Source: a virus. From it: DNA of 64,000 nucleotides. This document shows positions 6,001 to 39,216 of the stretch, one piece after another (positions within the stretch are counted from its first letter, which is position 1; each line of letters starts with the position of its first letter). Location: positions 1 to 64,000 of IMG/VR virus record IMGVR_UViG_3300005805_000055; one strand, written 5' to 3'. The notes below the pieces were generated by a model, which was given only the letters and a program-made list of their open reading frames with translations, searched no databases and was not told the DNA's origin. The translations under genes were made by a program, and so were the position numbers.

Positions 6001-9000
6001 GTGGCTGATTCTCTTTTCGACAAGATTTTAAATGGCGATATCTCATTTACCGTTGCCAAGGATTCAGATGCCCAAGAGCAGGGCACTGAACTCCCTGGGG
6101 TAGCGAAGAAGGCCGTAGGAAACCCCCTAGGTGGACGTCGTGCGCTAGGTGACGTCATTGGTGGTGGATTGCGTAAGCCGCCCACTGGGATGGTCTACGT
6201 TGACATTACGGGCGCCATCGATGGTGACGAAGACGGCATTGTCTTTGAAGGTACGCCATTCAAGCGGCCAATTATCCCTCGCGCCGTCATCCCCAAGAAT
6301 GTAGCCCAGGCTCAGTCGGAAGATTCTCTACAGCGTGCCCTGAATAATGAGTCCAAGCGGCGCGGCACGGACAAGCCACGTGGTGAGATGACGGATCGTG
6401 ATGTCGCTGATCTATATCGAAGGCGCTCACAGCCAGAGGCTGCTGGTTCTCGATCACGCACGGATAGATACTCTATTGCCGAGCGTCCACTGGAAGATAT
6501 TTTGACTGACTTGGAGATGAGTGAGGATGAGAAAAACATTGCTAGACGGCAGTTACGCAGGGGTCTTGAGGATGTAAAGACGTTCATAAGGCTGTTAGAA
6601 GAGGCGGATCTTCCGGACACATTTCATCCTGGCATAACTAGAAAACAGGCAATCGATCTTCTGAAATCAATCCAAATTGGCGTTAGCTCAAATGGTGTAC
6701 CGGTTATCTCCTTCGACCCACATCCATTGTTTTCTGGCTATGCGGATAGGGAGAGAAACTGGCTTTCTATCGAAGCGCCAAGTGTCGACAAAATTCGGGA
6801 GTTTATTGATTTCTTGAGACCATATATTTCAGTGAGACCATATATTTCAGATAGAAAACAACCGTACAAGAAGCCCGGTGGAGCACCTACGGCGCAAGAT
6901 GTATTTTTATCTCGTACACTCGATGGCCTTGCTGGAGGTCTTATAGATGAAGATAAGATGCCAGCAATTGATGGTGATGAACTTTATGAACTAAATAATA
7001 AGTTTGCTACTGATTTGCAGAATGATAAAAATTTCCCATCAGAACTGTCAGACGCTTTATTGGATATTTTGCGAAAATCTCAGAAAACACCCACTTCGGT
7101 ACCTGACTTAATTTTAAGTTCAATAATAAATCCAAATAAATTAATCTTACACGATGGCGTTGATCACATGTCTACTGGTCGTGGATTTGACAGACATGGT
7201 GAGTGGGCGGCACTTATAGCTGGAATGAAAACAAATGTTGATTATGTAAATGACACATATGACGAAAAACTTAGCGATAATGATGTGCGTTTACTTAACA
7301 TAGATTATTTCCGACTACGTGGTGGGCTCTCCATACTACAAATGCAAATAGATCCAGAAAAACTCAAATTATTCTCGGAGTATCGAGATCTGGATAAGCA
7401 ATCAAGCGAGATGTCATATGAGGATGCCATTAGACGCATGCAATCAGGTGACGATGAGTTGGATAAGAAAATGCGTGAAATACAGGGGAAGATTAAAGAT
7501 TTAGATAACTTACTTGATGATATAAATCTATTTTTAGATGATACAAACGCTGGTTATGTTGTTTCGGCGTTGGAAGATCGTGGTGTCGAGTCACCGATGG
7601 ACATACTTGATCCAAGAGATGAATCAGGTAATTTTATAAATGGCAGCAAATCTACAACTGCTAGATACATAAATATTAATAATACAAAGACCGAATTGTT
7701 CAATGCTGCCGCCGAAGAGCAATCTAGGTCAACTATGCATGGGTCTAAATCACGCACAGATAGATACTCCATTGTCGAACGTCCCCTGGACGACATTTTG
7801 ACTGACTTGGAAATGAGTCAGGGGGAGCGTGAGGTGGCCAGGGATGTACTAGAGCGCTCACAGGATAAGTTACGCAAACTTCGTGAACTTCTTGCGGATG
7901 AAGACGTTCCCGCATTCATGCACCCTGGAATGACTCGTGAAGAAGCACTAGCATTCATAGATTCAATAAAGCTGTCTGTGTCGTCCAATGGTGTCCCAGT
8001 TATAACATTCGATAGGTTACCGTATATAAAATCGATACTTGGAGACATTGACCCAATCGGTGATGATAGAAACTGGGAAACCGTTGAAGCATTAAATATT
8101 CCGCAGTTAAGAAATTTGATTCAAGTAATAATGTCTTCACCAGAACTTGATCCAGAAATAGTTGACTCCCTGGATCCCGATATTCTTGATAGTTTGCCCG
8201 AGGGAGAAGCATTCGCTGCACGCGACGAACTAACAATAGAAGCACTTATAAAAACTAGGCAATCCGCAGCTGATGAACTTGGCATATCTCATGATGCAGT
8301 ACGCGGAATATCTTTCTATGGAATAGCATTGAGTCAAGGTGCCTATATTCAAGAAAAACTTGGGATACGTAGAGTTGACCTTATTGGTAGTGGTGGTGCT
8401 GATGTTATCACTGAGTTAATGTCGCATTTACTCGATATTGGATCAGCGTTTGATTCATATCATGACACCATGGAACATTTTGGCCAAGGTCGTGGCTTTG
8501 ACAGACATGGGGAATGGGTTGCATTTCTTGCTGGCATGCTTCACGCCGACGCATGGATAAAGCGTGAGGCCGAAAGAATTGGCGAAGAATCATCGGCAGA
8601 ACTTGATGCTGTTAGAAAAACACTTATTCAAAAATATTTGTTTGATCAAGGTCTTCAACAATTGTTGAGACAGATTGAAACAAACAAATTGCAGGAAATA
8701 ATAAATTTTGCCAGAGAAAATTATGACAACGCCAATAGAGAACAGCGGCTAACTGAAGCGGTAACTAATTTACTAAAGGCATATGTTGATGTAGTTAATC
8801 GTATACGTAAAGAAAGAAATATTCAATCAGGACAGCTTAATTTTGAAGAACTATCGAAAGGTATGATTAAATTTGACGATGGGCAATATGGAAACATAGT
8901 AAAACGCATTGTCGACAGCATAGACAATTGGAGATTTTCGAATCTAGATAATTTGCCAGCAGGGGCAATCGTAGAATTTCTTAATTTCCAAGCAACAAAT

Positions 9001-12000
9001 CTTTCTGGAAATATTAAAAAAATTCGAGAGATGATGCGAAACACGGAGCCAAACGATTTATACGAAGAAATGTTTTTTAATATATTCGGAAGATTCGGTA
9101 GGGAGGGCTTTACGAAACTAGCAGATTTATTTATGCCAGATTTTCGCCCTCAAAACGATGTAACTATATATTCTTTGGATGAAGCTATTAGGCGTTTTCC
9201 ATATTCATCACTTACCGCTGATGAAATTATTGAATTACTTGACCCACGTGATTCTGAAGGGAAGCCAATAAACGGAAGTAAGTCCACTACACGAAATGCT
9301 ACTTCATTCCTGAATTCCTCAACTGATGACATTCAGGCTATTGTGGATGAAACCACGCCCCACCACATAGCCGGGTCAAAATCAAGAACCGATAGGTACC
9401 CAATTGGTGAACCTGGGCCAGGTGGACGGGAACGAAGCTTGGAGGATATTGCAACAGATCTTCGACTTACGGATACCGAGCTGGCAATTGCTGAAGAAGC
9501 CATCATGCTGGCCATAGAGGAAGTGCAGGATATTTTAGCAAATCCAGATAATCAAAACTTTGATCCCATAATAGGAAAAGAACAAGCTTTGGATCTACTC
9601 AGGGCACTTACTTTATCTGTTTCATCAAATGGCATACCAATGATAATTGGCAAACCACATCCCCTGATTTCTCAATTTATACCATCAGAACGTGAATGGG
9701 ACTTGATTGAGTTGCCAACGCCAGACGGACTGCAAAAAATATTTGACCTACTATCGGTTGGCGTCGATAAGTTAGAATCAACGCCACAAGGTGAACGTTC
9801 ACAAATATCAGATAATATTCTCGATATTTTTCAATTGGTGGAAAAACTAGATTCACGTGCGAATATGAGTCGCCGCATGGCGTCCTTGCTTAGGAGATAC
9901 AACGATGTAATTCTTGGCCAAATAGCACGTAGCGTGTTTGAGTCAATTTATGGAACTTCACCAAATGATGCGATATCTAGGTTGGAGTTGCGTGATATTG
10001 AATATGACTCCGGCAACTGGATTGAATCATATATTGCCGGACTAAGAAATATGGTTATTTATTTAATGGGAAATAATCAAGATATTACAGACATAGATGC
10101 AGATGACAGAGATACAGATTGGCATGATTTCTTTGGTCATTATGGTATCGGAAGAGCATTTGATCGACATGGTGAGTGGGCAAACTATCTCGCAATAGAT
10201 TCCATTATTGCTACAGATGAAAGATTTGGCGAAGACAAACAGCTACGAAATCTTTTGCGTCTCAGTGCTTTTTTTGAATATGGATGGCCGTTGATATTGG
10301 TTGACAGTTTGGATAGACAAACCGACCGTCTAGATAGGGATTCTACGAAAGCATTTGCCTTTAGTAAAGTCATGCAGGATCTTGTAAGTCTATTCAATAT
10401 GTACCCCGTTCGATTCCGCGATATTGACGCAGATGAACTAATTGACTTAATAGATCAAGATCACAGAGACAGAATTAACTCTGGAAGCAAGTCGTCAACG
10501 CAGACAAATAGACAAAATCTTGAAGACATCGACGAGCTGGATAGGATAACCAAGGCTCAATTGGTTGATGAGTTTGTGCGTCATGAAAATAGAAAAAATG
10601 GCATAGCGGATAGAAGAGATGAACTCGTTTCTGGATCGCGAAGCAGAACATCGGGCGAGTATCGCATGTTGACCGACGTCTATAAAGAGCTTAATGATAT
10701 GCCATCGCTGAAGAGGGAATTGCAAAAAACAAAGTGGAAAGGAAAAAAACTTACATTAGAAGAGATAGATAGCGAACTTGCTAATGATTTTCCTGATTTC
10801 AGTGGTGCAATTATAGATATTCCAAATATGGCAATATTTGATTTCAGTAGTCGACGACGTATGGCTAATCGGAGAATGAATTTTGAACGAGCCTTTATCG
10901 GCCCTGACGTTAGGTTTGCAAATATCGATCTCCGTGGATCAAATTTTGAAAACTCATTCCTATCATCACCGCGTTTCAGTGATGTGGATGCGTCGGAAAC
11001 ATCATTCGCTAATGCAATAGGCGCCATAAAAGCCGGAAACTCAAACTTTAGTGCTGCAGATTTTACTGGTTTCCAGAATACAAGACATGATGAAGGCGAT
11101 TCATCGTCAATTTTTATTGACTCTGATCTTTCTGAAGTTCGTTTTACTAATAGCAATATACACATGAGTGTGATTCGCCCACGATCTATGCAAAATGCGT
11201 ATTTTGTGGGGGCAAGCTTGAGGTATTTGAACATTGATGGTAGTAACTCAGAAAAAGAGCTGACATCAATGCTTTCTGGCAATATTGATGAACCGTCATT
11301 CATTAACTTTGATGAATCTAATATTGGAATTCTTAATATCAAGGGCATTAACCTTAGTGGATCATCGTTCAGGAGAGCTCGAACATTCCATAACATCAGC
11401 GAAATCACAGACTTTGGTGATGGCAACATGGTTGACAGAATGATGGAAGCACTACGGGATCCGAGTTCCATGTCAATATCCGTAGATCAAATGATTGATG
11501 TTGATTTTTCCGGCGCAAAATTAACATTTCCAAGATTTGGCATAGCATCCATAGACGCAAGGACGGCTGCTTTTGTCAATTTCGAAAATGCAGTTTTGGC
11601 CCGCATGAATATCGGTATTAGGTCCACAGCAATCAGTGAAGATGCCTTCTATAAAGCCTACGGCGATTTTGTTCGTGGCAACGATAAGGAGGTATTTTTC
11701 AGAGCAATGGGTCCAGATAGTGCTGGAATCAATATTTCTGGTGCGCGTCTATATAACGTTGGATTCGGAGACCAGACACAATCTGGTGAACGCAGCAGAA
11801 TAAACTCATTGGCAATCGATGAACGTACGCGTGTAACCATGGGCACTGAATCGATTAGGGCGATTATTGATCTTGACTTTCCAGATGATGAGGTCGATCC
11901 TCCTTTTGTTTTTGCTGAATTTGCTGAAGAAGATTTTGATAGTCCAAATGGTCGGCTTATTGCAGATAAGTTAAAGGATTCCGGAGCAAGATTTATTTCT

Positions 12001-15000
12001 GGATCCAAATCAACAACATCTGGGAGTGGAAAAGAACTAGGAGTATGGTCTCCACCAGAGGACCCAGATTTCTTCAATAAAATTGTTAGTGATTTGTATG
12101 ATCGATTTTCGAATCGGGAAATAGAAGCTCGACAATATCCGAGAGTACGAAAATTCACACTTGATGAAATTTTAAGTGATCCACTTGCACTTACACAATC
12201 AATAGATGCATATTTAAATCGCCCAATGATGTATGCGCCAGAAAAGGGAATGGATTCCCTTTTTGAGCGTGAGAGTTTAGCGCTTGCTTTCCAGTCTTTC
12301 ATAAAGAAGTTGTTTGAACCTTTAGTAGAAAATGAAGAATTTCAGCCAATGGTCGATACATTGGCAAACTATTTAATTGGAAAGCATGGAAAAGCAGAGG
12401 CTTTCAAGCTCATCAAAAAGGCTGCAGCCAGAGGTGATTTTGCCAAATTGTTAGCGGAGCAGTTTATGACCGATATAGCTATGGGAATGATTTCGATGAG
12501 AGCTGGCGGTCAAATACCATTAAGTGACCGTGAAAATTTGCGTTCACAAATAGATAAATATATAAGCAAAGTTGGCATACTTAGTAGTGAGGATAAGTGG
12601 TTCACACCTAGTGGGTCGAAACAAGTACGCAGGGAGGCATTTAGATTCCAGGAAGTAGCTAAAAGTATTGTTGCTGCAACGGAATTTGAAAAAAAACCTG
12701 CTCGTCGACCACGTATAGATGAAAAACTTAAAGTTGAAATTGACGACCTATTGCCGGATATAAAACGCCTTGACGCGGATATGACCAAAGAAATTCGTCG
12801 GGAAAGAAAGATTGTTGAGTTGGAAAAAGACTTTTCTGATGGCGAGGTTGCACTTGACGCAGTTATAGAAGCTGGGTCGAGGATATTGGAACGTGTCATA
12901 TTGGAAACAGAACGACGTACTTCAGAATTGGCTAGCAAGGAATTTGCTCTACTAAAAGACATTAGTGATGGAAAAGAAAAACTCTTTAATGAGATGTGGA
13001 AGAAAAACATTGAATTGAGGGAAATAGAAAAGGAGGCCCTCGCATCAACATTAATGGATATTAAGGGAAAGTTGTTAAAAAATAATGATCCCGGTAGAAA
13101 GAATTTAGATGATGCTGCGTTAAGAGTTGTTGACGACATTATAAAATTGATTCAGTCTGCTGAACCCCGCGACCCTGATAGTGGCAACAAGAGTTTCGTT
13201 ACTTCAAAAATCAATTCGATTGATCTTCCTTTTAATTATGCTACTACCGACAACATAATCAAAGAATCAAGAAAGGGGGCAGATATTGGAGAGCTCATGT
13301 ATAAACTTCTCCAAACGCTTGTTCCTGGCTTACCTGGACACGAACGTGGATCAATGCAGAAAGAGCGTTTCTTTTTAAACGAAGAGGTTAAAAGGTGGAG
13401 TGAACGTTCTGGCACATCCGGTGGATACATCAGAAATGCAGCTTATGACGCCGCTTTGAAAAAAGCCGTATCCGATATAGTAAATGTTCCTGAGCTTATG
13501 TACCTAACGTATTTAGTTGGATTATCAGCCGACGATAGAGAAGAGTTTCGTATCCTACTGAGTAAGCCAGAACATGATCAGTTAGATGGGTTAATTGAAC
13601 AATGGCATAAGTCTCTGAGAAAGCCTGCTTCTTTTCAGCAGTCAGAAACAATGGCATTTTTTGGTAAACCGCAACCATTTGTTTTTTTACACTCTAGAAA
13701 TTCTGAGTATTATGTCATTGATCTTCCAGATATAAAAGGAGGTATGTATTACTTTGAAACTCCTGGATTTGAGGATGAAGTGAAACAGGCGAAGTCGAAT
13801 TTCTATACTAGTTATAGCTCACAATCCGAAAATGATGAAATGCTCGAAGAAATTAATACATCATTCGGCTTGGGAATTGATATGGAGATTTTGAGGAAAC
13901 TTCACAAAGTGAGAAAATGGGATGTAGTGAAGGATGCGATTATCAAAAAACACGCTCAATTTCTTCCTAACAATAGAAACATTCCAGAACAAGTAATAGA
14001 TCGGTTCAATAGTATCAATGAAGAAATACGCAAAATTAATGAAGAAATAGAAGTATTGAATAAGGGTGATCTAAATGAACGGGAACTTATTCCATCTGCT
14101 GTTTCCTACTTTGGAAAAATTATTGATCAAGGTGAAATCGATGCCTCTAAAAAAGATTTAGATAGTGTTCTTTCTATCCTTAAACAAGTTCTTCCACCGA
14201 AAGTGTTTGAGATAGCGCAACAATCAATTGTCGGACATTATAAAAAAGATGATACACCGTATAGATCTCCACGTCAAACTCCACGTGGAATTCGCAAAGG
14301 ACAATCGTATAGTTCTGGTACATTGAAAATTTTTACGGATAATAAATATATTTCGTTTATATTGGGCGAATACACTCCCAGCGGTCGCTATTCAGGCACC
14401 GATAGCCCCCGAGATCTTACTGACTTATGGCCCGATATTGGACCGAGTGGCGTGAATGAGAGTTTGGAAGATTTGAGGGATGCTGTCGTGAAAGCCCTAG
14501 ACGAGTCAGAACTGTCACTTTATGTGGAGCCAATGATGGCCAAAATGTTGACGCGAAGAGAAATAGAGATATTGCGAGCTCAGCAGTTGGTGGAAATTGC
14601 GAAACAGCAGGAAAAACAAAATCAATACGAAGCATTAATAGACGTTCTTGGCAGTACACGTAAAGGTTTTGGATACTCCCCCAATAGCTTCCAGAGGTAT
14701 ATTTCGAATATCCATGGTCGGGAGGGGCATAAGCATGGTGATGTCAGGTTCTGGCTTGAATCATTCCGTACGATTGTGCCAGAAGAATGGATTGATGCTT
14801 TACTAAAAAGAAAACAAAGAATGAAGTGGCTGACAAGAGGTTACTTCTCGGATGGTGGACGTGAAATTGCCCTCGACAGAAGGGGAAATACAGTTTTGGT
14901 ACATGAAATTGGACACGCTATTGAGCGCGCATTCCCAGAACTGGTTGGATTTGAGGCTCTTCTATTTAGATACATTGCAAAAAAACAAGGTTTATCCGAC

Positions 15001-16958: not shown

Positions 16959-17014
16959 TCATCAATTATAGTGCCTAAAATGGAGGTTCGCGTGTTGTAG
17001 AAGTGTAAATACAT

Positions 17015-17088
17015 GCCCCAGTAACTCAATCGGATAGAGTACCGGCCTTCTAAGCCGTTAGTTGTAGGTTCGAGTCCTGCCTGGGGCG
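17015..17088 (+). tRNA. tRNA-Arg (anticodon TCT, reads AGA)
   Basis: Acceptor GCCCCAG/CTGGGGC, anticodon loop CTTCTAA, T-loop GTTCGAG; CCA not encoded. Confidence 0.92.
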
Positions 17089-17093
17089 CAAAT

Positions 17094-17165: not shown

Positions 17166-17167
17166 CT

Positions 17168-25317: not shown

Positions 25318-25508
25318 TCATCCTCACTCGGTAGATCGTTGTCGTTCGACGCATTGACTTCATCATTTTCGTATTCATCAGTCCATGGAATGCCATGCTT
25401 TTCAAAGAGTTGCCGAGTCGTCAACCCCCCACTTGGGTTGATATTTCCAGATATTCCGGTTACTGTGCGTCGCTTAATTTGATCTTTCATTGCTTCCTCA
25501 TCACTCAA
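25314..25508 (-). CDS. Hypothetical small acidic protein
   Basis: 4-bp overlap with the stop of the 1163-aa ORF. Confidence 0.55.
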   Translation of the reverse strand: MSDEEAMKDQIKRRTVTGISGNINPSGGLTTRQLFEKHGIPWTDEYENDEVNASNDNDLPSEDD

Positions 25509-28500: not shown

Positions 28501-28996
28501 CATTCCCTACCGACATTAAAGAAACAATTGCCGAAGACTCTTTTTTATTTTTACCAGCTATTTTGATTCCAGTAATAAGCGAATATTCGGGGAATGATGA
28601 TAGTCCAGAAATTGTTGCTATTTCTACGCCATTTAGATCTTTTCGTCTTGCATCTGCTATCCCCATTCTGGAATAAGCCTCAAGTATTTTTGTAATTAGC
28701 TCAGGTTGATCGATATTAGATATATCAAGATGTGAATTTATGCGCCTACCGTCAATAATCACAGGAAGTTCGAAATCGATAATTCCATCTTTAATTATTT
28801 CTGGTTCGTTTATAGTTGCATCCCCATCCGTAATGGCCGAACTAGACGAAACAACTCCAGCAGATGGTGAAATGGCACCAATAAATACCGGTCGCTCCCA
28901 TGGAGTAGAATCCTGAATAATTCCATCCCCGTCGCCATCTTCTGCATTTGGGTCATACCGCAAATTTGTAATCCTTGCCATAATTACTTCCTCCAT
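25505..28996 (-). CDS. Polyvalent protein B (1163 aa): DxDGDG motif, zincin, ART-like domain, DUF7178-like helical domain; 2 GSKS[ST]T sites
   Basis: HEIGH...VTDYA...EDFAESF; MFRS...VSFS...KEAVI; WY...AALSP...KVRSFY.N...VTIDTWM...LQAFLW. Confidence 0.8.
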   Translation of the reverse strand: MEEVIMARITNLRYDPNAEDGDGDGIIQDSTPWERPVFIGAISPSAGVVSSSSAITDGDATINEPEIIKDGIIDFELPVIIDGRRINSHLDISNIDQPELITKILEAYSRMGIADARRKDLNGVEIATISGLSSFPEYSLITGIKIAGKNKKESSAIVSLMSVGNGESASVFITHIPNDLAQSVLAVGKKRKSLIEKARGISERKLDTVDSRMAFDHTAMPGYKTSFADLVQQVMSLNFPRHSIPLAISFIDDLHENDENTAATAISLARSIAFWNNPDAAKIHTRLHVLGHEIGHLVDVIPSGYESSYEQWRSLLGQDKIPTRFSLSDSYRKATMDDFLRNQARRINSSDIDQYLLNTVTPESTRVTDYADSIGNQIIGMQEDFAESFGLFMLSEMMGILGRRKTGDNGTYTFGDLFPSRDKFFRDLLFSFGISNLKNPSGSKSTTKPHFIPPRINISTPEFPTLKHGKWMTSSPIIGPQRMSPVPFIDQQTFNMSLEAMKFLRKYPSLNGRAVRWMMGDLTKLGTDQEMDDYEKPLNALDKILDIAPSIDVSTMFRSFDYWESFEPAKRLKAGQSVVLRAAPVSFSIGDALDNADRASGMLGNQRLNSPTKRIVFAIPKNARGVIYDDSATDMEQWLAGPKEAVIRGRFAISSIKEQNGITIATLKTIDETKNDNNPFFYFSTDGKITPSSSIIHNDSLSPAVLLGPNVISDSDVSDLGELQSDIQVAGKYLFEIEPAPLVVSNYKNNASKNVGISAQSTVIAAYQFSDFGDAISFGERVSPSGSKSSTRYSINERFLDDSLFIELNSSDKKDIEARRKMLEKLNKLGLDYDGLKAYARQVLLDQLSKSGQKKFKRDMKDALRWYPRVRKGLISLTKELNELESMRGRRKFAKEEIFAMMAALSPMERVASNVKRVNVIASVLARDESFQITIPSGGIKGLPKDVMSWIRNKANMDFTPSSFIDRFVKDFGDDSLGIAHAALARIHPVLFASKGPAGITNVIKAMMIANRVDSIDNILRGMKVRSFYLNFVNPAGQNVTIDTWMYRAMIPEDKIFSVNIKGKTYTGTLRQLETDLKDDFSAQSLFQSGDIQGIKSVGVYPIFAQVIRELADEFGGDFPDLGKITPAGLQAFLWEVGRTTWKTENKVPPTEWDKVEKWFSLN

Positions 28997-31900
28997 TTCT
29001 GGAGTGGGCCATGGTAATTATTGGAACTAGTCGCAATATTTACCTGATCATCGAGACCTGCAGTTATGGATGATAAAAATCTACCCAAATTGTCAATGCC
29101 TGATATGTATTTGTGCTCATCGCCAGAGAAGTTGCGCATTGGATCAAGTCCACCAATTGAGTAAAACATTATTGGCACATCGCCATTTACAAGTATAGTT
29201 CGTATTGCGCTAATCTGTGCTGCATTAAGTTTACGCGTTCCGGTATCGACAATCAAACTATGTGCTGGACGTCGCGAAGACCCCCAGTCATATCCTAAAT
29301 CTATACGCACAAGTCCGGAATCCATTGCATCTATAAAGAATGAATCATAATAATTACTCAAAACTAACTCTTCATCTTCCGGTATGGCTAATTCAATATG
29401 CATCTGAACGGGAAGTAGTGTCCCGTCTGGGTAAAGCCATGCTTTTGTAGATTTAGGCATTGAGTCAACATATTCCGTGGCAGTAATTCTTTTGCCACTG
29501 CGTAATGAATCCGTATATGCGGTTGAAGATTTTGAACCCTGAATTCTGTCTTGACCATCGACTGCTCTTGGATTTTCCGGATATCCAAATAATTCAGGCG
29601 GGATATCTAGCCACAATGGGATATTGAGTGGCTCAGCAAGATTTTCTGGGTCATCACGTCCTTTGTCAAAACGTGATACTGGTGGTGTTCCTGGTCGATG
29701 CCTAAACTGTCTTTCCTGGATCCTATTGAAATGATTGCTCAATATCCATCCGCCGGGCGAATAGTTGTGCAACATCCATATTCCATAGTTTGCGGCAAAG
29801 TCTCCATGACGAGTAGCACCCATGCCCATCATTATGTGCCCGACCTCATGCTCCCAACCACCAGGTGTTGTGGCGGGATCTAGCCATCTGAATACCTCAT
29901 CTACATGGGGGGAACCGAATGCTTCGACCAGACCCGGAACTATGTTCATAGCTATACCTTTAATAACTGAGCCATTTTCCATATTATCGAATAAAGCATC
30001 AAATAATATTTGATCCCTTTCGACCTCTTCGGCAAAGTTGGTTATCTCAATATCCAAAACTTCAACAGCATCACGTTTATCTATAAATTGATTATAAATT
30101 CGAACAAAGTCTTCAAGCATTTTGTATGATCTATCTATTGCGTCTTTGGAATTTTTGAGTGTTTCTTTAACAAACTCAGATCCTTCTGCATTACCGAAAG
30201 TAAATATTTCGTCAATATCTTGCGATATCATTCTACGAATCGGAGTACTGCTGTCATCTATTGGCAGACCTTCAATTATTTCTTCTGGATAGTCTTGAAA
30301 TCTTTCATAATTATATGCGTCAATAAACTTTTTCAGTAAAAGAGTAAATGAACCATCCCCATATGGATCCAAAAATACCCTGGTCAAATTATTCTCATTG
30401 AGGCCAATTCTCTGACCTTCGTATGGCAGGATGCCATCGTCATAGAATTCATCTGTGTCACCCCAATCAGGTTCTAGGTCCCATGATTGTAGACTTTCTG
30501 CATCATTGATAGAGAAGATGAGATCTCCATTTGAGTCAAAAAAAGATATTATAGCTTTTCCGAAATCATTACGTTCAATTACGTATTCCCACCCATCGAG
30601 CAGTCTGTCCATTTTTGCCCGCTGTGTTTGGACATACTCATTGAGTTTTATCCGTTGCTCTGGTGATATGTATTCTATTTGTTTTAAGAATTTTATGTCG
30701 TCACTACTTATTCCCAGTGGTTCAACCAATTCTTTAATGTAGCCGTAGCTAAGCACCGGGATTCCGGGATGATTTATGCTGTCACGTATCTCCATGTCGC
30801 GCAAAATCCTTAGCGCAAGAGCTTTTTGCTCTGGCCAGAGTCCGGCAACTGGGTCTGGGGAGATATTAAGCTTCAGCATTCTTGGCATAGATTTTACATA
30901 TAAGGCCATATCCCTAATTGGCAACGACTTTACGGGTGGATTGATTGTTGACGATTTTGAACCGCCGGTAAAGTCACCTAGATGTACTGTATCAACAACT
31001 GATACTGACTCTGGATCAGCCAATACTTCGCTCTCACCACGACGTGTCAAGAATGCATGAATTTCATCTTTCTTGACTTTTGCAGTCGTTACATAGGGTG
31101 TCGAACCTTCGATTTTGGCAAATCGGTCAGCAAACCATGATGCAATATTTGGATCCGTAGTCCATGACCATCCGTCATCACGTTCCTCAGTGTGTCCCTG
31201 ATAGATTGTCACTATGTCTGGTAGCGAATCATATTCAATGCGCTCATCATCTCTCATCATTGAGAGCCGACCAGGGCGTGGGGATGCCAGGAGTTCATCC
31301 CAGTAATCGCGCATTTCAGGAATGTTTTCTGAATCTGTCCAGATGTCAGCCAGGAGTGACCAGAACTCATCATCTGTCAACTCATCCTGGATTTCCATAA
31401 ATGCATCAAGTCGGTATGGCCTCTCGTGCAAGAATATAAAGGAATCCCAGTCTTTATTTGACCGAGCAGAATTTGCTGCGGCTTGCTTGGCGCGTACTTG
31501 TTCGTTGTATCGGCCATTCATTGTCGGTATATAAATACCATGAACGAACTTATGTCTTATGAAAGAGAAGCCGGTTCCATCGCCACTCACTGCCGAACTT
31601 AATTCCGGAATCAGATCTTCGTCAGAGCCGGTAATAAAACTAGAAAAACGCTTTTTGAGATCATCTGATAGATCATTCCAATCAAATGGTTCATTTGGTT
31701 TATTAGTGGAAGACTTGGATCCAGTCCTTCCTGGTGGTAATCCCCAAATTTCGTCAGGCAGTTCAGCCCAGAGTGGAACGCGAATGATCGGAAGTCGTTC
31801 GCGACGATTTCTATTAACTACATTTCCTGGAATTCTAGCTTCAACATCAACTGGTTCATCTAGTTGCCACTCTGGGATAATCATCGACTGGAATGAATTG

Positions 31901-34900
31901 CGGTCATTGAGGGCAAAGTGTGCAGGTCCATCGCCACCAAGAGCTAGGAATGTCGCATAGTTTGATGCGTAATCGCCATGTCGATCTATGCCGAGCCCAA
32001 GGACCATATGGCCCAATTCATGCATAAATCCATCTCCCGACATTTCCTCCATACCGTCACCGAGGACATATTGAAGTCTGTCAGTATAAAACTTTAGTAG
32101 TTCTTCTATCCTCTGAGGCGAGACATTTTGATTCATGGCCCAGATGGCATCTCTCAAATTATCATTATTAAATTCAATATTGTCAAAAATACGTAGACCA
32201 ACCGAACTTCGTAGAGAATCACGAAGCTTCATGGCAGCTGACTTTATTCTAAGACCTGAAGCAATGGACTCCGAAACTTTCAGGAATTGTTCCTTATACC
32301 AGCTGCCAGTTTTGTTATCAGAAAAATTGATAAAGTCATCAAGATCGGGCATAATGCCATCATTAATCATGTCCTGAAGCGATTTACCAGAAATATCCTG
32401 TTCTAAATATTGATTTACAATTTCTGGATTGATAAAAATACGAAAACATATTGCTTTCCAGGAGTCCATCATAGAAGAAAGAACATCTACTTTGTCTGAT
32501 TCATCCACAGATGTTCCGTAGAAATTTCTAGCGAATGACATCAATTGATATGAAGGTTCTGATGGTAGGTCATCCACGAATTTGAGGATTGGTTTGCCTT
32601 TGCGGTCGACCAACTCAACCCCCGTGGAGAACAGTCGTCCCACTTGTGACGAACCATCGAACCTTACATTTATATACGATACTACTGGATTGTCGTCAAA
32701 GTTAAGCTGCTTGCCAGTTGTCTGAACTAGTTTTGGCAATTTTACTTTTTTGCCATCACGCATAAATGATGTACCAAATACCATTGAAGAGAAGTCTTGA
32801 AGCATCGACTCAACATATCGTGCAAGCTCAATTCGCTCATCTTTTGTTAAGTAAGCAACACTTTCAATTCTTTCAATATCAGCATTTGTTAGATTTAGCG
32901 CCCCCATTATTGGGCCAATTCTTGGCAATCGCATTAGTGGAACTTGAGAATTTCCATCAACCCATTCAACTAGTGTCTCTTTAATACTTCTCAAGATATA
33001 TGAGTTGGTGTCTGCAAGTGAATCACGCAAATCATCAATATTGTGAGTAGTTTGGGGAACTCTCTTTGTTGACGACTTGGAGCCAATCAAGCCGGATGGA
33101 GCGGGAATAGCTTCATCAACTATTTCAACAGGTGAGAGTTCTTGCTGCTCGTCATCGAGTTCTAGATATCGTGAATTTACGAATAGGGCATCAATAAGTT
33201 TTTGTGTATTCGAAATTGCTCTAAGCCTATTGCCACGACGTGACAGGTCATTCTTTCGGAACTCAAGATCATTCATGAAGGACTTAACCTCCATTGCTCG
33301 AGTCCACAGGAGAGTTGGATTAGACGACTCAAAGAGTGAACTATTTGTTTTTGCCCTATCCACAATGAAGTCAACCAATCTGGCAGGGCTATTGAATTCA
33401 GTAAACTCCAACAAATTAACTGTTGATTTATCCGGAAGCACAAATGTCTTTAGCGCTTCTATCTCTGAATTCAGAAGAGAATTAACTTTTGACCAATTTG
33501 CTACATCTTGATTATGGTCAATAAGGGCCCCATCTACCGCGTAGAGTCTATTAAGCCACTCCGAAGCGTTAAGTCCTCGATAATTTAAATTATATTTGCG
33601 TTCATTAATTACTTCTGCAAAAAAATCATATAGTGAGTCGAGTGATGTCCCATTAAACTCATCGAATGTATTCCTACCGCTTTTATTATCGATCTTTACG
33701 GTTGGCTGTCCAGAAAAATACTTAGGAAAGTGCCGTTGTGAGGAAAAGATCGCACCATCAAGATTTGTTTCATCATCACTTATTGCCTCTGATAAATCAG
33801 TTCCAGAAAAATCTACTCTGCGTGCATCAGACCCGCTGATATTGATGAAATGAGCGCTCTGTAAGTTTCTGAAATTTGATCCTCTTAGTATTGAACCGCT
33901 CACATCTAATGGCCCAGTGATATCTACATTGTCAAAAACTGAATCACGTAAATCATTACCACTAAGCATTACATTATTCATGCGGCTAAGGGTGAAATCA
34001 GAGCCACGCATAGATGAATTAGAAATAGATGTATCATCAATTTCTGACATCATGAAATATGAATTATCCATATTCATATTAGTGAAAGTGCTTTGCATTA
34101 TCGCTGAACTTATAAAGTTTCGATTCCTAATATCCGCCCCATCAACGTCGCCATTGGTTACCGCCAGGTGGCCATCAATGATTAGTCCATCAAATTGGAC
34201 AGAATCCTTATTCATTGTATCTATTATGCTGGGAAGAATTGGAGCCCTAGTTTGGCCATATCCCTTGCGTATCTGTGGTGTAATGGAAATTCCAGAAGGG
34301 AGTGTTGTTGACTCATCAATATTGGCATTTGCTAGCTGCGCTGCCGACACTATTGATCCCTGGAGATTGGCCCCACTCAGCTGGGCATTATCAAGATTAG
34401 CCATCATCAAATTTGCACCAGTAAAATTTGCACCCTTGAGATTTGCTGAAAATAAATTTGCTCCGCGCATTATGGAATTACTAAAGTCTGCTCCGGCGAA
34501 ATTGCCATTTGACATATCTGCATATCTAAGGTCAGTTTGCTTTCCTCTAATTCCATTTGCCTTGAGTGCTGGCAAATATGCATTTCTTAATGATGATGCC
34601 AGAAGTTTTGATCCCGAGATATCAGCACCCATGCCACTGACCTGCTGAAAGTTTGCGTAAGAAAAATCAATATCCGACATATCAATATCGTCGGCAATAT
34701 ATTGACCCATCATGTCAATCCCAACAGTATTGAGTTCAGCAAATACATCGCTATTCAGTTTGTTGTCTTTAGAAAATCCTCTTATGCGAGTATTTGTTGT
34801 TCCGTTTATCGATGTAATCTTGGAGACACGCTTCTTTGGTGTTCCCTTCATATTCGCCAATGCAGAAGTTTCGAGGGTTTTGCGTATTAGATCTGAGTCT

Positions 34901-37545
34901 TTGCCAAATATTGTATTAAATGCTCTACCGTCGCGAATTTTGAACATTCCGATTTCATCATGTCCTGCTATTAGTTTTGCCCCACGACTAGATGAGTTAT
35001 CCCAAATATTTAACTTGTCGAATAGCCCAGAAAGAATCTGTTGTTTTACATTATTTATGTAATTTTTGTTCGTTAGTCGCGCAAATGCTGCTCCAAGTAT
35101 TGGACCAGTCTGTTTCTCTCGTTCATTAATCCTTGCTTCTAGTTCTCTTTCTGGAACATAAAACATGTGTCCGATTCGTGAGTAGGAATTATCCGGTAGC
35201 AACTTCAATAAATTGCTTGTGTTACCATAGTCGTCTATCACAATATTCAGCGACTCATTGATTCCCGCCAATAGTGCCTTCTCCTGAGCATAACGTGCGG
35301 CAGCATGGATGCGAGCTGAACCAATCCCGTCATCGTATCCATTTAACTTTTCTTTAATTGGGTCAATCCCAATGTGCATAGATTGTGTTTTATCTGGAAC
35401 ATCAATTATTCCAGAAGAAATAGACGAGGATTTTCCACTACCACTTGGACCCATAACAAAATGCGCTGTTGGATTCTGAAGGTTTTTATACTCATCATCG
35501 ATGTCATCAATTATTGACTCGATCATTTTTTGACCGCCAGAACCAATAACTTTATTGGAATTTGAACCATTGATCCAGAAGGAACGTGCTGCATCATCTC
35601 TGAGCAATCTTGCTCGATTTAGCGTATCTGGGGATAGCTGCCCAATCATTTGTACAGGCAATTCATGCACGAGGCCAGGATTAGCTGAAACAACGTCTAA
35701 GAGTTGCTGGTCTTTTTTACTTAAAGTTGTGGATTTTGATCCACCAATAATTGCGCGTGAATCAATAAGATTTATGACGTTGGGTATATCACGCTCGCGA
35801 CCAGCCATATCAAGTAGTTCCGCAATTGTAATATCAAGTGTTTCTGCTGCGTGCCGTATCGCCGTGCCATCAACCCTGCCCTTCCCAAGTGGCGTGGATG
35901 GATCAAATAGTGCATCTATTGTTTCGGCAAAATATTCATCTCGACTAAATGTAGCATAATCAGAAATTTTACGTGCTGAGTTAAATTCATCACGACTTCC
36001 CCATATCGACTTATTTAGGTCACCTATATAGCGTCGTCTGAAACTTCGTTCAGCCCTACCGGCACGGCGCAAGCGTCTTGATTCGCGAAGAATGTCATCG
36101 GCAAAAAAATTAATACGACGATCAAGGAGTTTTTTGTTTCCAACCATTGCCATATCTGAGAATGCATGACCAAGCTCGTGTCTAATTATTGAAAGTTTTC
36201 GTGCATCAGTCATGTCCTTAAAGACATCGATCCCATTATTGGAAATCGCATCATCGTTAATCCCGATGAATCCACGAGAGTCATACATCCCACTAATAAG
36301 GCCCCACTTTCCACTCTTAAATAGTGGTCTATGAGGTATGTCTAGTGTTGGAATAATGACCGGCATTCCGAATTTGGTAATCAAATTTCGTATGCCACTT
36401 GGTTTCGTTGGGTCAGCAATAGATGAGAGCAGTAGTCTACGTAATTTTTTTGCTGATTCCCAATTTGGTTTAGAGCGCATTATTGCTGAAAAAACTGTAT
36501 CTGCATTCATTCGTGAATATGGGCTTGCCGCAATTGAATGCATCAATTCTTCTGGCGATATTGGTGTTGCAAGTGTGACTATTCTACCAATTGTCTTAGA
36601 GGAAAAATAATCTCCAGATTCGCTCAGATTCAACCTTGCACCGATACGCAGCTTTGCAAGCGTCGTCGCCCTACGCTCCTCCATGCTTCCAAGTGGCTTA
36701 CTGGTGCTATCTCTAGTCATGGAAACCGCAGATGCCTGTTGTTGTGGTGAAAGATTCGACACCTCGCCATTTGTTCCAACAACAGCAACTGGAATAATTG
36801 GACGACGCTTCATTATGTTATTGTCAAAAACTATTCCATCTCCATCACCGTCAAGCGCACCACTAATATCCTGAAATATTTGGTTTGGGCGACTTCTTGC
36901 CGATAGTGGTTCACCAATTTGCTTTATCTCAATTTCCGCATTTATTGTTTTGGAGTTAAGTTCTTGATTTGTTTTGGAGTTAAGTTCTTGATGTAGTGAA
37001 ACCTTTCTGGTTCGTTTCTGGACCTGGCGAATTTCATCACGAATAATTTTGCGTATTGCTTCGCGCTGGTGCCTCCTACCCAATGGCGTGGAACCTGTCA
37101 GGCGATTGAAGTCTGACATATTCGTACACGGCATCCACACGGTTTTCCCAGTTTTAGAAATTCTCCTACTTACGCCTATGCAGCCCAACTGTCTTGCACG
37201 TTGACGTGCTGACTCAATATCGGTAAATACATCGGGGTCATTATCTCGTGGCTGATATGTGATGTCGGCCTTCACGCTCATTCCAGATACAAGACCACCG
37301 CCAGCGAGAGTATCAATTGATACGATTCCATTTTCGCCAAGATTTTCCCACTGGCGTCGCAATTTATTTACACCACGTACTCGCCGTCCAGCCGAACGTG
37401 GCTTATCACCCATGAGCGAAGATAATTCCGTGGCTGACGAACATGGCTTCAATGCTCCAGAAGAATCAATATGCGCACCCGAGCAACCAAGTCGTTGTGC
37501 CTGACGCAATACTAATGCTCTGTCCTTGGCTGATGTTGTTCGCAT
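28984..37545 (-). CDS. Giant polyvalent protein C (2853 aa): two DUF3721-like motifs, DxDGDG motif, zincin, zeta-toxin-like P-loop kinase, pentapeptide repeats, two HExxH/RHG modules, ART-like domain; 5 GSKS[ST]T sites
   Basis: A..LGC.G...[KM]PC twice; HELGH...SDYA...EYFAE; MGPSGSGKSS; A[ND][LF]xx repeats; IYQG...WSWT...GESEV. Confidence 0.85.
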   Translation of the reverse strand: MRTTSAKDRALVLRQAQRLGCSGAHIDSSGALKPCSSATELSSLMGDKPRSAGRRVRGVNKLRRQWENLGENGIVSIDTLAGGGLVSGMSVKADITYQPRDNDPDVFTDIESARQRARQLGCIGVSRRISKTGKTVWMPCTNMSDFNRLTGSTPLGRRHQREAIRKIIRDEIRQVQKRTRKVSLHQELNSKTNQELNSKTINAEIEIKQIGEPLSARSRPNQIFQDISGALDGDGDGIVFDNNIMKRRPIIPVAVVGTNGEVSNLSPQQQASAVSMTRDSTSKPLGSMEERRATTLAKLRIGARLNLSESGDYFSSKTIGRIVTLATPISPEELMHSIAASPYSRMNADTVFSAIMRSKPNWESAKKLRRLLLSSIADPTKPSGIRNLITKFGMPVIIPTLDIPHRPLFKSGKWGLISGMYDSRGFIGINDDAISNNGIDVFKDMTDARKLSIIRHELGHAFSDMAMVGNKKLLDRRINFFADDILRESRRLRRAGRAERSFRRRYIGDLNKSIWGSRDEFNSARKISDYATFSRDEYFAETIDALFDPSTPLGKGRVDGTAIRHAAETLDITIAELLDMAGRERDIPNVINLIDSRAIIGGSKSTTLSKKDQQLLDVVSANPGLVHELPVQMIGQLSPDTLNRARLLRDDAARSFWINGSNSNKVIGSGGQKMIESIIDDIDDEYKNLQNPTAHFVMGPSGSGKSSSISSGIIDVPDKTQSMHIGIDPIKEKLNGYDDGIGSARIHAAARYAQEKALLAGINESLNIVIDDYGNTSNLLKLLPDNSYSRIGHMFYVPERELEARINEREKQTGPILGAAFARLTNKNYINNVKQQILSGLFDKLNIWDNSSSRGAKLIAGHDEIGMFKIRDGRAFNTIFGKDSDLIRKTLETSALANMKGTPKKRVSKITSINGTTNTRIRGFSKDNKLNSDVFAELNTVGIDMMGQYIADDIDMSDIDFSYANFQQVSGMGADISGSKLLASSLRNAYLPALKANGIRGKQTDLRYADMSNGNFAGADFSNSIMRGANLFSANLKGANFTGANLMMANLDNAQLSGANLQGSIVSAAQLANANIDESTTLPSGISITPQIRKGYGQTRAPILPSIIDTMNKDSVQFDGLIIDGHLAVTNGDVDGADIRNRNFISSAIMQSTFTNMNMDNSYFMMSEIDDTSISNSSMRGSDFTLSRMNNVMLSGNDLRDSVFDNVDITGPLDVSGSILRGSNFRNLQSAHFINISGSDARRVDFSGTDLSEAISDDETNLDGAIFSSQRHFPKYFSGQPTVKIDNKSGRNTFDEFNGTSLDSLYDFFAEVINERKYNLNYRGLNASEWLNRLYAVDGALIDHNQDVANWSKVNSLLNSEIEALKTFVLPDKSTVNLLEFTEFNSPARLVDFIVDRAKTNSSLFESSNPTLLWTRAMEVKSFMNDLEFRKNDLSRRGNRLRAISNTQKLIDALFVNSRYLELDDEQQELSPVEIVDEAIPAPSGLIGSKSSTKRVPQTTHNIDDLRDSLADTNSYILRSIKETLVEWVDGNSQVPLMRLPRIGPIMGALNLTNADIERIESVAYLTKDERIELARYVESMLQDFSSMVFGTSFMRDGKKVKLPKLVQTTGKQLNFDDNPVVSYINVRFDGSSQVGRLFSTGVELVDRKGKPILKFVDDLPSEPSYQLMSFARNFYGTSVDESDKVDVLSSMMDSWKAICFRIFINPEIVNQYLEQDISGKSLQDMINDGIMPDLDDFINFSDNKTGSWYKEQFLKVSESIASGLRIKSAAMKLRDSLRSSVGLRIFDNIEFNNDNLRDAIWAMNQNVSPQRIEELLKFYTDRLQYVLGDGMEEMSGDGFMHELGHMVLGLGIDRHGDYASNYATFLALGGDGPAHFALNDRNSFQSMIIPEWQLDEPVDVEARIPGNVVNRNRRERLPIIRVPLWAELPDEIWGLPPGRTGSKSSTNKPNEPFDWNDLSDDLKKRFSSFITGSDEDLIPELSSAVSGDGTGFSFIRHKFVHGIYIPTMNGRYNEQVRAKQAAANSARSNKDWDSFIFLHERPYRLDAFMEIQDELTDDEFWSLLADIWTDSENIPEMRDYWDELLASPRPGRLSMMRDDERIEYDSLPDIVTIYQGHTEERDDGWSWTTDPNIASWFADRFAKIEGSTPYVTTAKVKKDEIHAFLTRRGESEVLADPESVSVVDTVHLGDFTGGSKSSTINPPVKSLPIRDMALYVKSMPRMLKLNISPDPVAGLWPEQKALALRILRDMEIRDSINHPGIPVLSYGYIKELVEPLGISSDDIKFLKQIEYISPEQRIKLNEYVQTQRAKMDRLLDGWEYVIERNDFGKAIISFFDSNGDLIFSINDAESLQSWDLEPDWGDTDEFYDDGILPYEGQRIGLNENNLTRVFLDPYGDGSFTLLLKKFIDAYNYERFQDYPEEIIEGLPIDDSSTPIRRMISQDIDEIFTFGNAEGSEFVKETLKNSKDAIDRSYKMLEDFVRIYNQFIDKRDAVEVLDIEITNFAEEVERDQILFDALFDNMENGSVIKGIAMNIVPGLVEAFGSPHVDEVFRWLDPATTPGGWEHEVGHIMMGMGATRHGDFAANYGIWMLHNYSPGGWILSNHFNRIQERQFRHRPGTPPVSRFDKGRDDPENLAEPLNIPLWLDIPPELFGYPENPRAVDGQDRIQGSKSSTAYTDSLRSGKRITATEYVDSMPKSTKAWLYPDGTLLPVQMHIELAIPEDEELVLSNYYDSFFIDAMDSGLVRIDLGYDWGSSRRPAHSLIVDTGTRKLNAAQISAIRTILVNGDVPIMFYSIGGLDPMRNFSGDEHKYISGIDNLGRFLSSITAGLDDQVNIATSSNNYHGPLQKWRK
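36945..36992. repeat. Exact 24-bp tandem duplication inside polyprotein C
   Basis: TTGTTTTGGAGTTAAGTTCTTGAT twice, giving QELNSKT-N-QELNSKT. Confidence 0.9.
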
Positions 37546-37569
37546 ATTGACCGATATTCGGATTGCTGT

Positions 37570-39216
37570 TTACTTTTTCTTTGGTCGTGGATTGAGGAGT
37601 CTATTAATGAGTTTTCTTGACCCAGTATCTATTGCTCTCGCAAGGCGATCATCTGTTGTGGATGCGGCTTGGCCTTCTCCTGGTTTTCTCGTATTTGCAG
37701 AAATTGGTGAACCTTTTTCATATCCACCAACACGGAGAAATGCAGTTGACTCTGATGTTATTGACTTTTGCTTTGGTGAAACTGAAGTTTTTGCTCCATC
37801 TGACCGCTTCTCATCGTCAAAAAGAAATTTCTTTCCTGATGGATGTAGGTGCTCGATAAATTCATATGGATCGCTATCCTTCATTGTCCGCATATTATAC
37901 AATGCGAGCAACTCATCATAGAATCTATGAACCTCAAGCCGTGCCTTTTCTGGTATTGACTGCTTGTTTGCATATTCCTCAACCCAAGACTGCATTTCTT
38001 CTAATAGATCCTTGGTGGGTCCATCCAGCTTCTCACCCTTGGCTTCAGCCGCCCTTTGTGTTGCTAGAAATCTTTTTCTAAAAGGCATATTTGCTCCACC
38101 TGGAGTTACGCCAGTCAATTGGTAAAACCGCTGATCCTCCAGTGCCCTTGCGCGGCGAGCAACGGTTGCACGCTCTTCTGGTGTTAGCTTTGACCAAATT
38201 TTTCCATCTTCCGGTGATGCTCTATCTATGCCAGGATTACCGACATAATTTTTTCTTGTAGTTGACTTTGATCCACTTAGCTGTGCTGGCAGCGACCGCG
38301 CGCGACTTGTTCTATCAATATTTGCACTACGCGCACGTGATGGTGAAGTACCGAAGGATATTGATCCCGATGAACGCTGCGTCGTCTTGCCAACTTCCTT
38401 GGGTTTTGAGTCCCCGGACATTCCACGTCTACCCATAATAAAGGAGCGAGCAGCGCCAACCCGACCCTGCTGATTTGGCATTTGTGGCCTAGCTGGGCGC
38501 TGGAAGGGTGTTCCTTCTTGAATGAGCATGTCACCATCTGCATCGATTGCATTTGGGTCAAACCGTTGTGAAATCGACCTACTCATGCGTCTGAATGCAC
38601 CTTTTTCGCTTACTGCTGGCTGCAGAGGGTATTGCTTGCCGTCATATTTAGAAGTTTTCTGATTCAGTACAGAAATTGCATCATTTCTGACCAATCCTGG
38701 CTGGTAATTGCCGTACATGTGGTCGCTTTCCTCTTGCATACCCAATGATGGAGGGCCAACGATTGTTCCAGTAAGTGGGTTATAACTCAAACCCTTCATA
38801 CGGAACTGTGCAAGAATTGATGCACTTTCAGCATCTGAAGAAAACGCGCGTGCTTTGTAGTTAATCACAAGATCTCGCGAATCTGGAGATATTCCAACTA
38901 GTTGAGCTGACCTTATTTGTGGAAGAATGGATTTCGTACTTTCAATGTGCGATGCAAGCAACCTAACTACAGGTATTGATTTAGTAAGCTCACGAATATC
39001 GTCACCATTCAGTACCTCATGGATTTCGACATATGGTGGAAGCGTTGATTCAATATCTAATGATTTTGATGAATTTAGCCAGTTTGCCCACTCTATCCCC
39101 CTGGAAGAGAATCCATTTGCCACATAGGAGCCATCCCCTGCTTGATATACATTGGCAAATATTTCATTGGATTCAGTTAAGAATATGTCGAATTTATGTT
39201 TCATTTCATCCACCAA
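37570..39216 (-). CDS. Protein D (548 aa) with DxDGD motif and one GSKSTT site
   Basis: FDPNAIDADGDMLIQEGTPFQRP; LSGSKSTTRK. Confidence 0.8.
   Translation of the reverse strand: MVDEMKHKFDIFLTESNEIFANVYQAGDGSYVANGFSSRGIEWANWLNSSKSLDIESTLPPYVEIHEVLNGDDIRELTKSIPVVRLLASHIESTKSILPQIRSAQLVGISPDSRDLVINYKARAFSSDAESASILAQFRMKGLSYNPLTGTIVGPPSLGMQEESDHMYGNYQPGLVRNDAISVLNQKTSKYDGKQYPLQPAVSEKGAFRRMSRSISQRFDPNAIDADGDMLIQEGTPFQRPARPQMPNQQGRVGAARSFIMGRRGMSGDSKPKEVGKTTQRSSGSISFGTSPSRARSANIDRTSRARSLPAQLSGSKSTTRKNYVGNPGIDRASPEDGKIWSKLTPEERATVARRARALEDQRFYQLTGVTPGGANMPFRKRFLATQRAAEAKGEKLDGPTKDLLEEMQSWVEEYANKQSIPEKARLEVHRFYDELLALYNMRTMKDSDPYEFIEHLHPSGKKFLFDDEKRSDGAKTSVSPKQKSITSESTAFLRVGGYEKGSPISANTRKPGEGQAASTTDDRLARAIDTGSRKLINRLLNPRPKKK

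Follow-up and report, generated by a model that had tools for sequence, protein, structure and literature searches.

Why do several large and, for the most part, unrelated proteins of one phage share a motif of 23 residues? The question arises in the window analysed here, bases 1-64000 (64,000 nucleotides) of the 93.7-kb IMG/VR record IMGVR_UViG_3300005805_000055; the remainder of the record was also examined. The motif has the consensus [FY]-x-P-x-A-x-D-x-D-G-D-G-x-[VI]-[QFY]-[DE]-G-T-x-x-x-R-P. A sequence-only reading of the window had taken it for a candidate head-packaging tag on five proteins. Our analysis suggests, with a probability of about one half, that the motif marks a cut-and-tag junction: a docking peptide on cargo of the head interior, with a site for the prohead protease ahead of it.

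Six copies of the motif in one phage

All five copies noted in the sequence-only reading translate as quoted there, the one in polyprotein A on the plus strand and those in B, C, D and the 820-amino-acid (aa) protein E820 on the minus strand. A sixth copy lies just beyond the end of the window, in the ArdC/MPTase polyvalent giant F. The copies are listed here with the open reading frame (ORF) of each carrier; positions are in aa of the carrier and D1 is the first Asp of the DxDxDG loop.

6202-6279, plus strand: motif in polyprotein A (3077 aa, ORF 6001-15234); subtype 2 (DITGAIDGDxDGIVFExTPxxRPIIP), D1 at aa 74; 45.5 bits
19398-19466, minus strand: motif in E820 (820 aa, ORF 18156-20618); subtype 1, D1 at aa 391; translation and profile
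28889-28957, minus strand: motif in polyprotein B (1163 aa, ORF 25505-28996); subtype 1, D1 at aa 20; translation and profile
36790-36870, minus strand: motif in polyprotein C (2853 aa, ORF 28984-37545); subtype 2, D1 at aa 232; translation and profile
38494-38562, minus strand: motif in D (548 aa, ORF 37570-39216); subtype 1, D1 at aa 225; 54.4 bits
record 64272-64364 (L012:4272-4364), minus strand: FDEK-AIGG site and motif copy of F; subtype 2, motif at about aa 66; profile
53412-64000, minus strand: the part of F inside the window (ORF from stop to stop, record 53415-64535); domains of F are ArdC-N, MPTase-PolyVal and RNase_T

Searching the whole 93.7-kb record with a profile of the motif revealed exactly these six copies (33-54 bits), with a runner-up at 3 bits; the S78 protease of this phage was found by the same record-wide search to carry none. 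The corresponding regular expression matched five times in the window and not once in 200 trinucleotide shuffles of it. Subtype 1, [YF]DPNAxDxDGDGxIQ[ED]GTxxxRP, is carried by B, D and E820, and subtype 2, DI[TS]GA[IL]DGDxDGIVF[ED]...RPIIP, by the three giants A, C and F; the two align with each other without gaps. In the copy of D, M replaces the last G of DxDxDG.

Each of the six carriers has a single copy, so that one tag per precursor, as had been proposed, holds for this phage, if not for others (see below). The description of the carriers as otherwise unrelated stands largely: when the motif is masked, the only similarities left are about 80 aa of flanking sequence common to A and F, and pentapeptide repeats in A and C. 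An N-proximal position was found before processing for A (aa 74) and B (aa 20), and not for C (aa 232), D (aa 225) or E820 (aa 391).

A Lys site upstream of the motif

Four-residue sites of the form K-[ASQG]-[ILV]-G are rare in the head-operon proteins, with only 10 in 20.7k residues. Four of the ten lie 24-42 residues upstream of a motif copy (at aa 35 of F, 37 of A, 208 of C and 349 of E820), and a fifth is found at aa 98 of the major capsid protein (MCP), where homologues without the N-terminal domain start aligning (aa 98-99). The degenerate site of D, VSEK-GAFRR, corresponds to EEKAIGRR and EVKAIGRR of homologous junctions elsewhere. The copy of B has no Lys site and starts at aa 13, at the natural N-terminus.

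6109-6120, plus strand: Lys site of A, KAVG, 37 residues ahead of the motif
19563-19574, minus strand: Lys site of E820, KQLG, 42 residues ahead of the motif; the L004 orthologue has KALG
36913-36924, minus strand: Lys site KQIG (EIEIK-QIG) in C, 24 residues upstream of the motif
38593-38604, minus strand: degenerate Lys site KGAF (VSEK-GAFRR) in D, 20 residues upstream of the motif
21909-21920, minus strand: KSIG in the MCP (aa 98-101), the presumed junction of delta domain and mature protein (K98-S99), from the starts of homologue alignments

The same arrangement was found in other phages, where a strict Lys site occurs 5-50 residues upstream of 31 of 126 internal motif copies, as against none of 126 in the equal window downstream; the distance peaks at 25-34 residues. 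In a third subtype of the motif, the Lys stands only 3-8 residues ahead of the loop.

The MCP of HK97 is cut at K103/S104 (PMC10275583). On this precedent, the S78 protease would cut inside the prohead at sites of the form K-[ASQ]-[ILV]-G, a four-mer that also stands at the MCP junction. Such a cut would leave the motif near a new N-terminus, and the copies of C, D and E820 would therefore be N-proximal after processing.

Lys-site-like sequences were also seen ahead of another signature, RCPxG...SNC, on the minus strand. In a 3035-aa protein (signature at 50710-50724), NEK-KLG lies about 39 aa upstream of RCPPG, and in a 670-aa protein (40826-40840) NVK-RVG lies about 55 aa upstream of RCPEG. 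A homologue of the 670-aa protein, P0149 (1804 aa), has a DGDGDG motif at its extreme C-terminus.

Order of motif and GSKSTT sites

The sequence-only reading had placed the motif upstream of the first GSKSTT site in four carriers. Their positions agree with this, and F makes a fifth, so that the motif is ahead of the first GSKSTT in all five proteins that have both (A, 74 before 548; B, 20 before 442; C, 232 before 602; D, 225 before 315; F, 66 before 174). Calculated from the positions, and assuming a random position in each protein, the joint chance of this order is about 4e-4. In these carriers the motif always falls within the first fragment delimited by GSKSTT. E820 has the motif without GSKSTT, and the 3035-aa polyprotein GSKSTT without the motif.

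7642-7659, plus strand: first GSKSTT of A, aa 548
27656-27673, minus strand: first GSKSTT of B, aa 442
35725-35742, minus strand: first GSKSTT of C, aa 602
38257-38274, minus strand: sole GSKSTT of D, aa 315
aa 174 of F, minus strand: first GSKSTT of F, from the ORF translation

With the wider pattern [GAS]SKS[STRH]T, 28 copies were counted in seven proteins, one of them a 1545-aa ORF outside the window; G-S-K-S is almost invariant. The copies of the window fall in the regions 6001-15234, 25505-37545, 42367-51474 and 53412-64000, and the pattern was found neither in the portal, protease, MCP or E820 nor in the 609-, 670- and 359-aa proteins. If GSKSTT is cut after its Lys, it has a P1 Lys and a P1' Ser in common with the MCP junction. 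The 1545-aa ORF (record 85042-89676, L013:5042-9676, plus strand) lies downstream of the tail sheath gene; GSKSTT occurs in it once (aa 625) and K-A-[IL]-G twice (aa 36 and 431). No PHROG family matched this ORF, whose product may be a tape-measure-like protein that is processed.

Proposed action of the junction

As we picture it, a precursor would enter the assembling prohead by binding of the tag to a conserved inner component. This receptor would probably be the inner face or delta domain of the MCP, which is our first guess, or else the portal, our second. The prohead protease would then cut at the Lys site, which would place the tag some 20-40 residues from the new N-terminus, and the GSKSTT sites would split the remaining polyprotein into modules. 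The tag would probably be retained on the processed product and not removed. The tagged proteins would thus be built into the procapsid interior, to be delivered later with the DNA.

Distribution of the motif

The motif is nearly confined to viruses. A strict back-translated pattern was found in 8 IMG/VR contigs, with the motif at aa 47-66 of giant ORFs, and a looser DNA pattern in more than 120 IMG/VR contigs, as against 4 short contigs of metagenome-assembled genomes (MAGs) in 596 Gb from 185,579 prokaryote species. Masking of the motif splits the IMG/VR carriers into at least 24 families that are unrelated to each other. A profile of 31 columns built from 58 copies (A1), in which D, D, D, R and P are invariant and A, G, Q, G and T nearly so, matched 981 clusters at E<=1e-3, 236 of them with E<=1e-10, in a search of 1.84 billion protein representatives. 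The motif tends strongly to the ends of its carriers: 38 of 64 large proteins have their first copy among the initial 70 residues, and in small proteins the motif is N-terminal in 31, C-terminal in 23, at both ends in 8 and in the middle in 5. It is the best-conserved block of the family alignments.

Among the window proteins no Pfam family, calcium-loop families included, covered the motif at E<=0.01, and text searches of the literature on the motif and on GSKSTT found nothing relevant. The sole trace of it in the libraries is the C-terminal end of phrog_7924 (profile positions 83-111), a family whose function is not known. Small carriers match phrog_7924, some of them solely over the motif end; none of the five window carriers matched it at E<=1e-3. 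Searches of 50,697 isolate phages by tblastn with motif queries of 30 and 156 aa gave no match, a result that, with a short query and the low-complexity filter, does not show absence. When a 100-aa carrier was used as the tblastn query, only its N-terminal domain was matched, in Arthrobacter phages.

Partner domains, fusions and small carriers

Domains detected in the large carriers comprise DUF3626, RNase_T, DUF7178, Zeta toxin, ADP-ribosyltransferases (ARTs), PI3/4-kinase, GmrSD_C and S78 protease. Judged by these domain matches, the set is the repertoire of injected effectors.

Some carriers are fused to head proteins. P0147 and P0171 begin as portal or portal-MuF (compare gp46 of Streptomyces phage Gilgamesh) and continue as long chains with 4-5 copies of subtype 3, RDGDGDGFIYDGTPxxRP, and P0061 consists of portal, motif, GNAT, ART, motif and zincin in this order. 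In P0067, P0168, P0243, P0268 and a 23-member IMG/VR family, the S78 protease comes first, then the Lys site, then the motif. In four close relatives (L134, L136, L138 and L140), the protease and F, which are separate adjacent ORFs here, make up one fused ORF. The ORF of L136 is collinear with window protease plus F, at 58% identity over 585 aa, and the two window ORFs part directly ahead of FDEK-AIGG. The fusions to portal-MuF and protease lend indirect support to the predicted packaging of the carriers in the virion.

Small carriers consist of a globular domain, a flexible linker rich in Pro, Glu and Lys, and a terminal motif, which is sometimes in tandem. Three small-carrier families lie within 1.5 kb of MCP or protease genes. 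The phrog_7924 family (L087:5664-5963 and 36 similar IMG/VR loci) has proteins of about 100 aa with the motif at the extreme C-terminus, whose gene always precedes that of the major tail protein in a siphovirus-like module; its N-terminal 45 aa resemble hypothetical proteins of Arthrobacter phages. Another carrier, of 55 aa (L075:11400-11564 and 3 similar loci), is encoded between a 717-aa phrog_459 'peptidase' and a CobS-like ATPase, which is an auxiliary-gene context and not a head module.

Resemblance to calcium loops and structure models

The loop follows the pattern D-x-[DN]-x-[DN]-G with a hydrophobic residue at position 8: the three Asp are invariant, the Gly is nearly so, and position 8 is V or I. 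The segment A-x-D-x-D-G-D-G-x-[VI] parallels the loops of parvalbumin, calpain and calmodulin position by position (E about 1), and the invariant [QFY]-[DE]-G-T...R-P half has no EF-hand counterpart. A sequence search of the PDB gave no significant match; the best had E values of 0.9-6 and covered the EF-hand loop half only.

In an AlphaFold 2 (AF2) model of a small family with two copies, both motifs are coil with a predicted local distance difference test score (pLDDT) of about 55, and no helices flank the motif loop. The C-terminal domain of the same model is well ordered in comparison (pLDDT 84-89), and a fold search with it gave no clear match, with Z scores of at most 4.5 (L9-N-like; lambda gpFI-C, Z 3.8).

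Two other functions for the motif were considered. An Asp-Pro self-cleavage module like that of FrpC was rejected, as the D-P pair varies (N-P or K-P in some copies, and no such pair in subtype 2). A cleavage site between modules was set aside as less likely, given 23 residues, invariants of the metal-ligand type and a separate Lys site upstream.

Weighing the explanations

Several results weigh against a cut-and-tag junction. Packaging does not require the motif, which is one lineage's solution, because related isolates with giant ORFs between portal and MCP genes have none. No copy was found in the head-gene regions of about 40 kb of Gordonia phage ChisanaKitsune, Actinomycetia phage DSL-LC01 and Streptomyces phage Gilgamesh. 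Two of these phages encode giant hypothetical ORFs between portal(-MuF) and capsid genes (Gilgamesh, L147 31978-45852, 4624 aa; DSL-LC01, L146 52800-62669, 3289 aa). A strict Lys site accompanies only about one quarter of the internal motif copies. At loop position 12 the motif has a nearly invariant Thr, where a canonical EF-hand has Glu. The AF2 model of P0243, a fusion of protease, site and motif, shows no docking; it is poor and uninformative (17-row alignment, mean pLDDT 46.5, about 25-31 at the motif). In several polyproteins of other phages the copy number is 2-5, or roughly one for each module, and portal- or protease-fused proteins still keep the tag, where a tag for recruitment would be redundant. 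Its retention in these fusions therefore suggests a role beyond mere recruitment, in retention, organisation or release. As to the small carriers, BLAST detected no head gene in the locus of 65 of 88, the largest family (37 loci, phrog_7924) lies directly upstream of the major tail protein gene, and one family sits among CobS/peptidase genes.

The one-sided position of the Lys site (31 of 126 copies upstream, none of 126 downstream, and four of the six copies of this phage) would also suit an exosite, by which the motif docks the S78 prohead protease or another processing enzyme and steers cleavage at the nearby Lys site, as a processing signal and not an address. Site and motif follow directly after the protease in the protease fusions, and the short distance of the Lys from the loop in subtype 3 points the same way. 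We consider this explanation unlikely, given the many small proteins with the motif at the natural N-terminus (often in tandem) or at the extreme C-terminus and no Lys site near, the copy of B without a Lys site, and the roughly three quarters of internal copies without a strict one; nor was docking seen in the protease fusion, though that model is poor. An ejection or post-entry signal, be it a leader for the portal or tail channel, a calcium-sensitive release latch or a handle for a host factor, would explain why the motif is kept on portal- and protease-fused proteins that need no recruitment and why some polyproteins have one copy per module. It would also accord with the position near the presumed new N-terminus of processed products and with the likeness of the first motif half to EF-hand loops. 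Small carriers beside MCP or protease genes point instead to assembly, C-terminal copies are unlike an N-terminal leader, and a host-factor handle should also be carried by prophages and plasmids, yet cellular genomes are nearly without it; such a signal is, in our view, decidedly unlikely. It would be a similarly long shot to regard the motif as a general and portable handle for cargo, used throughout a large group of uncultured aquatic phages and acting as a calcium-gated latch, by which effector modules released by the protease would be held to the inner capsid or packed DNA and freed in the low-calcium cytoplasm after injection; every carrier could then be recognised as virion-delivered by its sequence. 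Very improbable is a generic calcium linker or external anchor, by which the motif would be a structural calcium site or would hold decoration-type proteins to the exterior of capsid, neck or tail and take no part in the loading of cargo. E820 and the L114 and L120 families are encoded immediately after the MCP gene, where decoration genes usually lie, the largest small family adjoins the major tail protein gene, and the architecture of globular domain, flexible linker and terminal motif, in some cases with a PG_binding_1-like domain, would fit an anchor. The large carriers, however, hold enzymes that act inside cells (ARTs, kinases, nucleases) and are fused to portal-MuF or the internal protease, which would be useless outside; there are no Ig, fibre or lectin domains among the carriers, and near-confinement to viruses would be unexpected of a generic calcium linker.

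The cut-and-tag junction thus keeps the part of the sequence-only reading that called the motif a head-cargo tag, as far as it is portable, restricted to viruses and found in head-operon proteins, with injected-effector domains and in portal-MuF and protease fusions; that the fusions keep the tag argues for more than recruitment. Its association with head operons holds for the six proteins here, and not for the largest small family, beside the major tail protein gene. That reading would have been contradicted by matches mainly in host surface proteins; the matches are not of this kind, with 4 short MAG contigs in 596 Gb.

The head operon and its proteins

On the minus strand, the genes follow in the order portal (record 66033-68114), S78-type prohead protease (64520-65992), F, the 609-aa protein and the 3035-aa polyprotein, then 173-, 218- and 670-aa proteins, D, C and B, and finally a PAPS-reductase-like protein, the 359-aa protein, the HK97-fold MCP (20898-22211) and E820. 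Besides these there are a divergent TerL gene and, further along, a tail sheath gene; the phage is a myovirus.

20898-22211, minus strand: major capsid protein of the HK97 fold, whose N-terminal domain has about 98 aa; PF05065 at 3.7e-48, phrog_10 at 4.3e-67

The closest MCPs of isolates are those of actinophages of about 90 kb. The S78 protease (record 64520-65992) matched phrog_80 at 2.3e-30 and shares 65-75% identity with the Peptidase_S78 domains of P0067 and P0168. F contains ArdC-N, MPTase-PolyVal, RNase_T and KTSC, C contains pentapeptide repeats and phrog_4776, and B contains DUF7178. As in polyvalent proteins, several conflict-type enzyme domains, including MPTase/zincin, are combined in the carriers, which are encoded with portal-terminase head genes.

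E820 is the next gene after the MCP gene, here and in L004, and its motif is nearly unchanged in the L004 orthologue although the linker diverges. The N-terminal part of E820 is rich in Cys and contains DUF6321. Its C-terminal half, after the motif (18156-19400, minus strand), consists of 2-3 tandem repeats of about 170 aa with the signature GSADxRER ... NWNPGRLPxGGKI ... DMVREDDK, which are kept in the L004 orthologue.

Significance and comparison with known systems

How proteins are chosen for loading into heads and injection is known in detail for very few model phages (T4, P1, HK97). In text searches we found no paper or Pfam family that describes the motif, which is common to about a thousand protein families of uncultured phages. 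If the cut-and-tag junction is true, the motif would serve as a marker, readable from sequence, of virion-delivered effectors (anti-defence enzymes, ARTs, kinases, nucleases), and it is a candidate portable tag for loading foreign proteins into capsids. Such a junction would also allow relatives to fuse or split protease and cargo genes at exactly that point. The model predicts N-termini of mature virion proteins at the Lys sites, loss of packaging on exchange of Asp for Ala, and calcium dependence.

The closest parallel in design is the capsid targeting sequence (CTS) of T4, a short conserved peptide that is portable in T4, occurs on diverse injected anti-host proteins and is tied to a prohead-protease site (PMC3012670). 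The likeness to the CTS of IPI-III and Alt, with the gp21 protease, lies in a short conserved peptide on diverse proteins that is coupled to such a site. The layout of Lys site, Gly/Arg-rich spacer and tag departs from the T4 design. The CTS forms the extreme N-terminal end ahead of the cut and is removed on maturation, whereas the motif lies 20-42 aa downstream of the presumed site and would stay. There is no sequence similarity between the two, the protease here is of the S78/HK97 type, and the motif is also found in C-terminal, internal and multiple copies. The site of the T4 prohead protease is of the E type, as against the K type here.

HK97 resembles this phage in its S78-type protease and in the scaffolding domain, about 100 aa long, at the N-terminus of its MCP, and the presumed K98-S-I-G of the window mirrors its K103/S104 (PMC10275583). 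It differs in having no polyvalent cargo and no DxDGDG motif. Duda and colleagues reportedly described in 2013 the C-terminal tail of the HK97 protease as a portable encapsidation signal. The cargo-loading peptides of encapsulins are likewise short and terminal, with flexible linkers, and dock diverse cargo inside an HK97-fold shell. The motif resembles them in its terminal or linker placement and its modelled disorder; the encapsulin consensus is hydrophobic and Gly-rich and not acidic, and encapsulins are not known to involve a protease step, DNA or delivery to another cell.

EF-hand and other DxDxDG loops (dockerin, Excalibur, thrombospondin type 3) resemble the motif in the loop half only, and not significantly. 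With MuF- and portal-fused toxins and with P1 Dar it shares that effectors reach the head by fusion to, or dependence on, head proteins; these systems use whole domains or an ordered protein-protein dependence and not a motif of 23 residues.

Polyvalent proteins are a class predicted to be packaged in heads and injected (PMC5512222; Iyer, Burroughs, Anand, de Souza, Aravind 2017). Calcium is not mentioned there, and neither a shared tag of this kind nor a Lys-site junction came up when the paper was searched by terms. Like the proteins of this class, the giants of the window are multi-enzyme chains (ArdC-N, MPTase-PolyVal, RNase_T, ART, Zeta-like) encoded among portal and capsid genes, and the motif is an extra feature that one subset of polyvalent proteins has.

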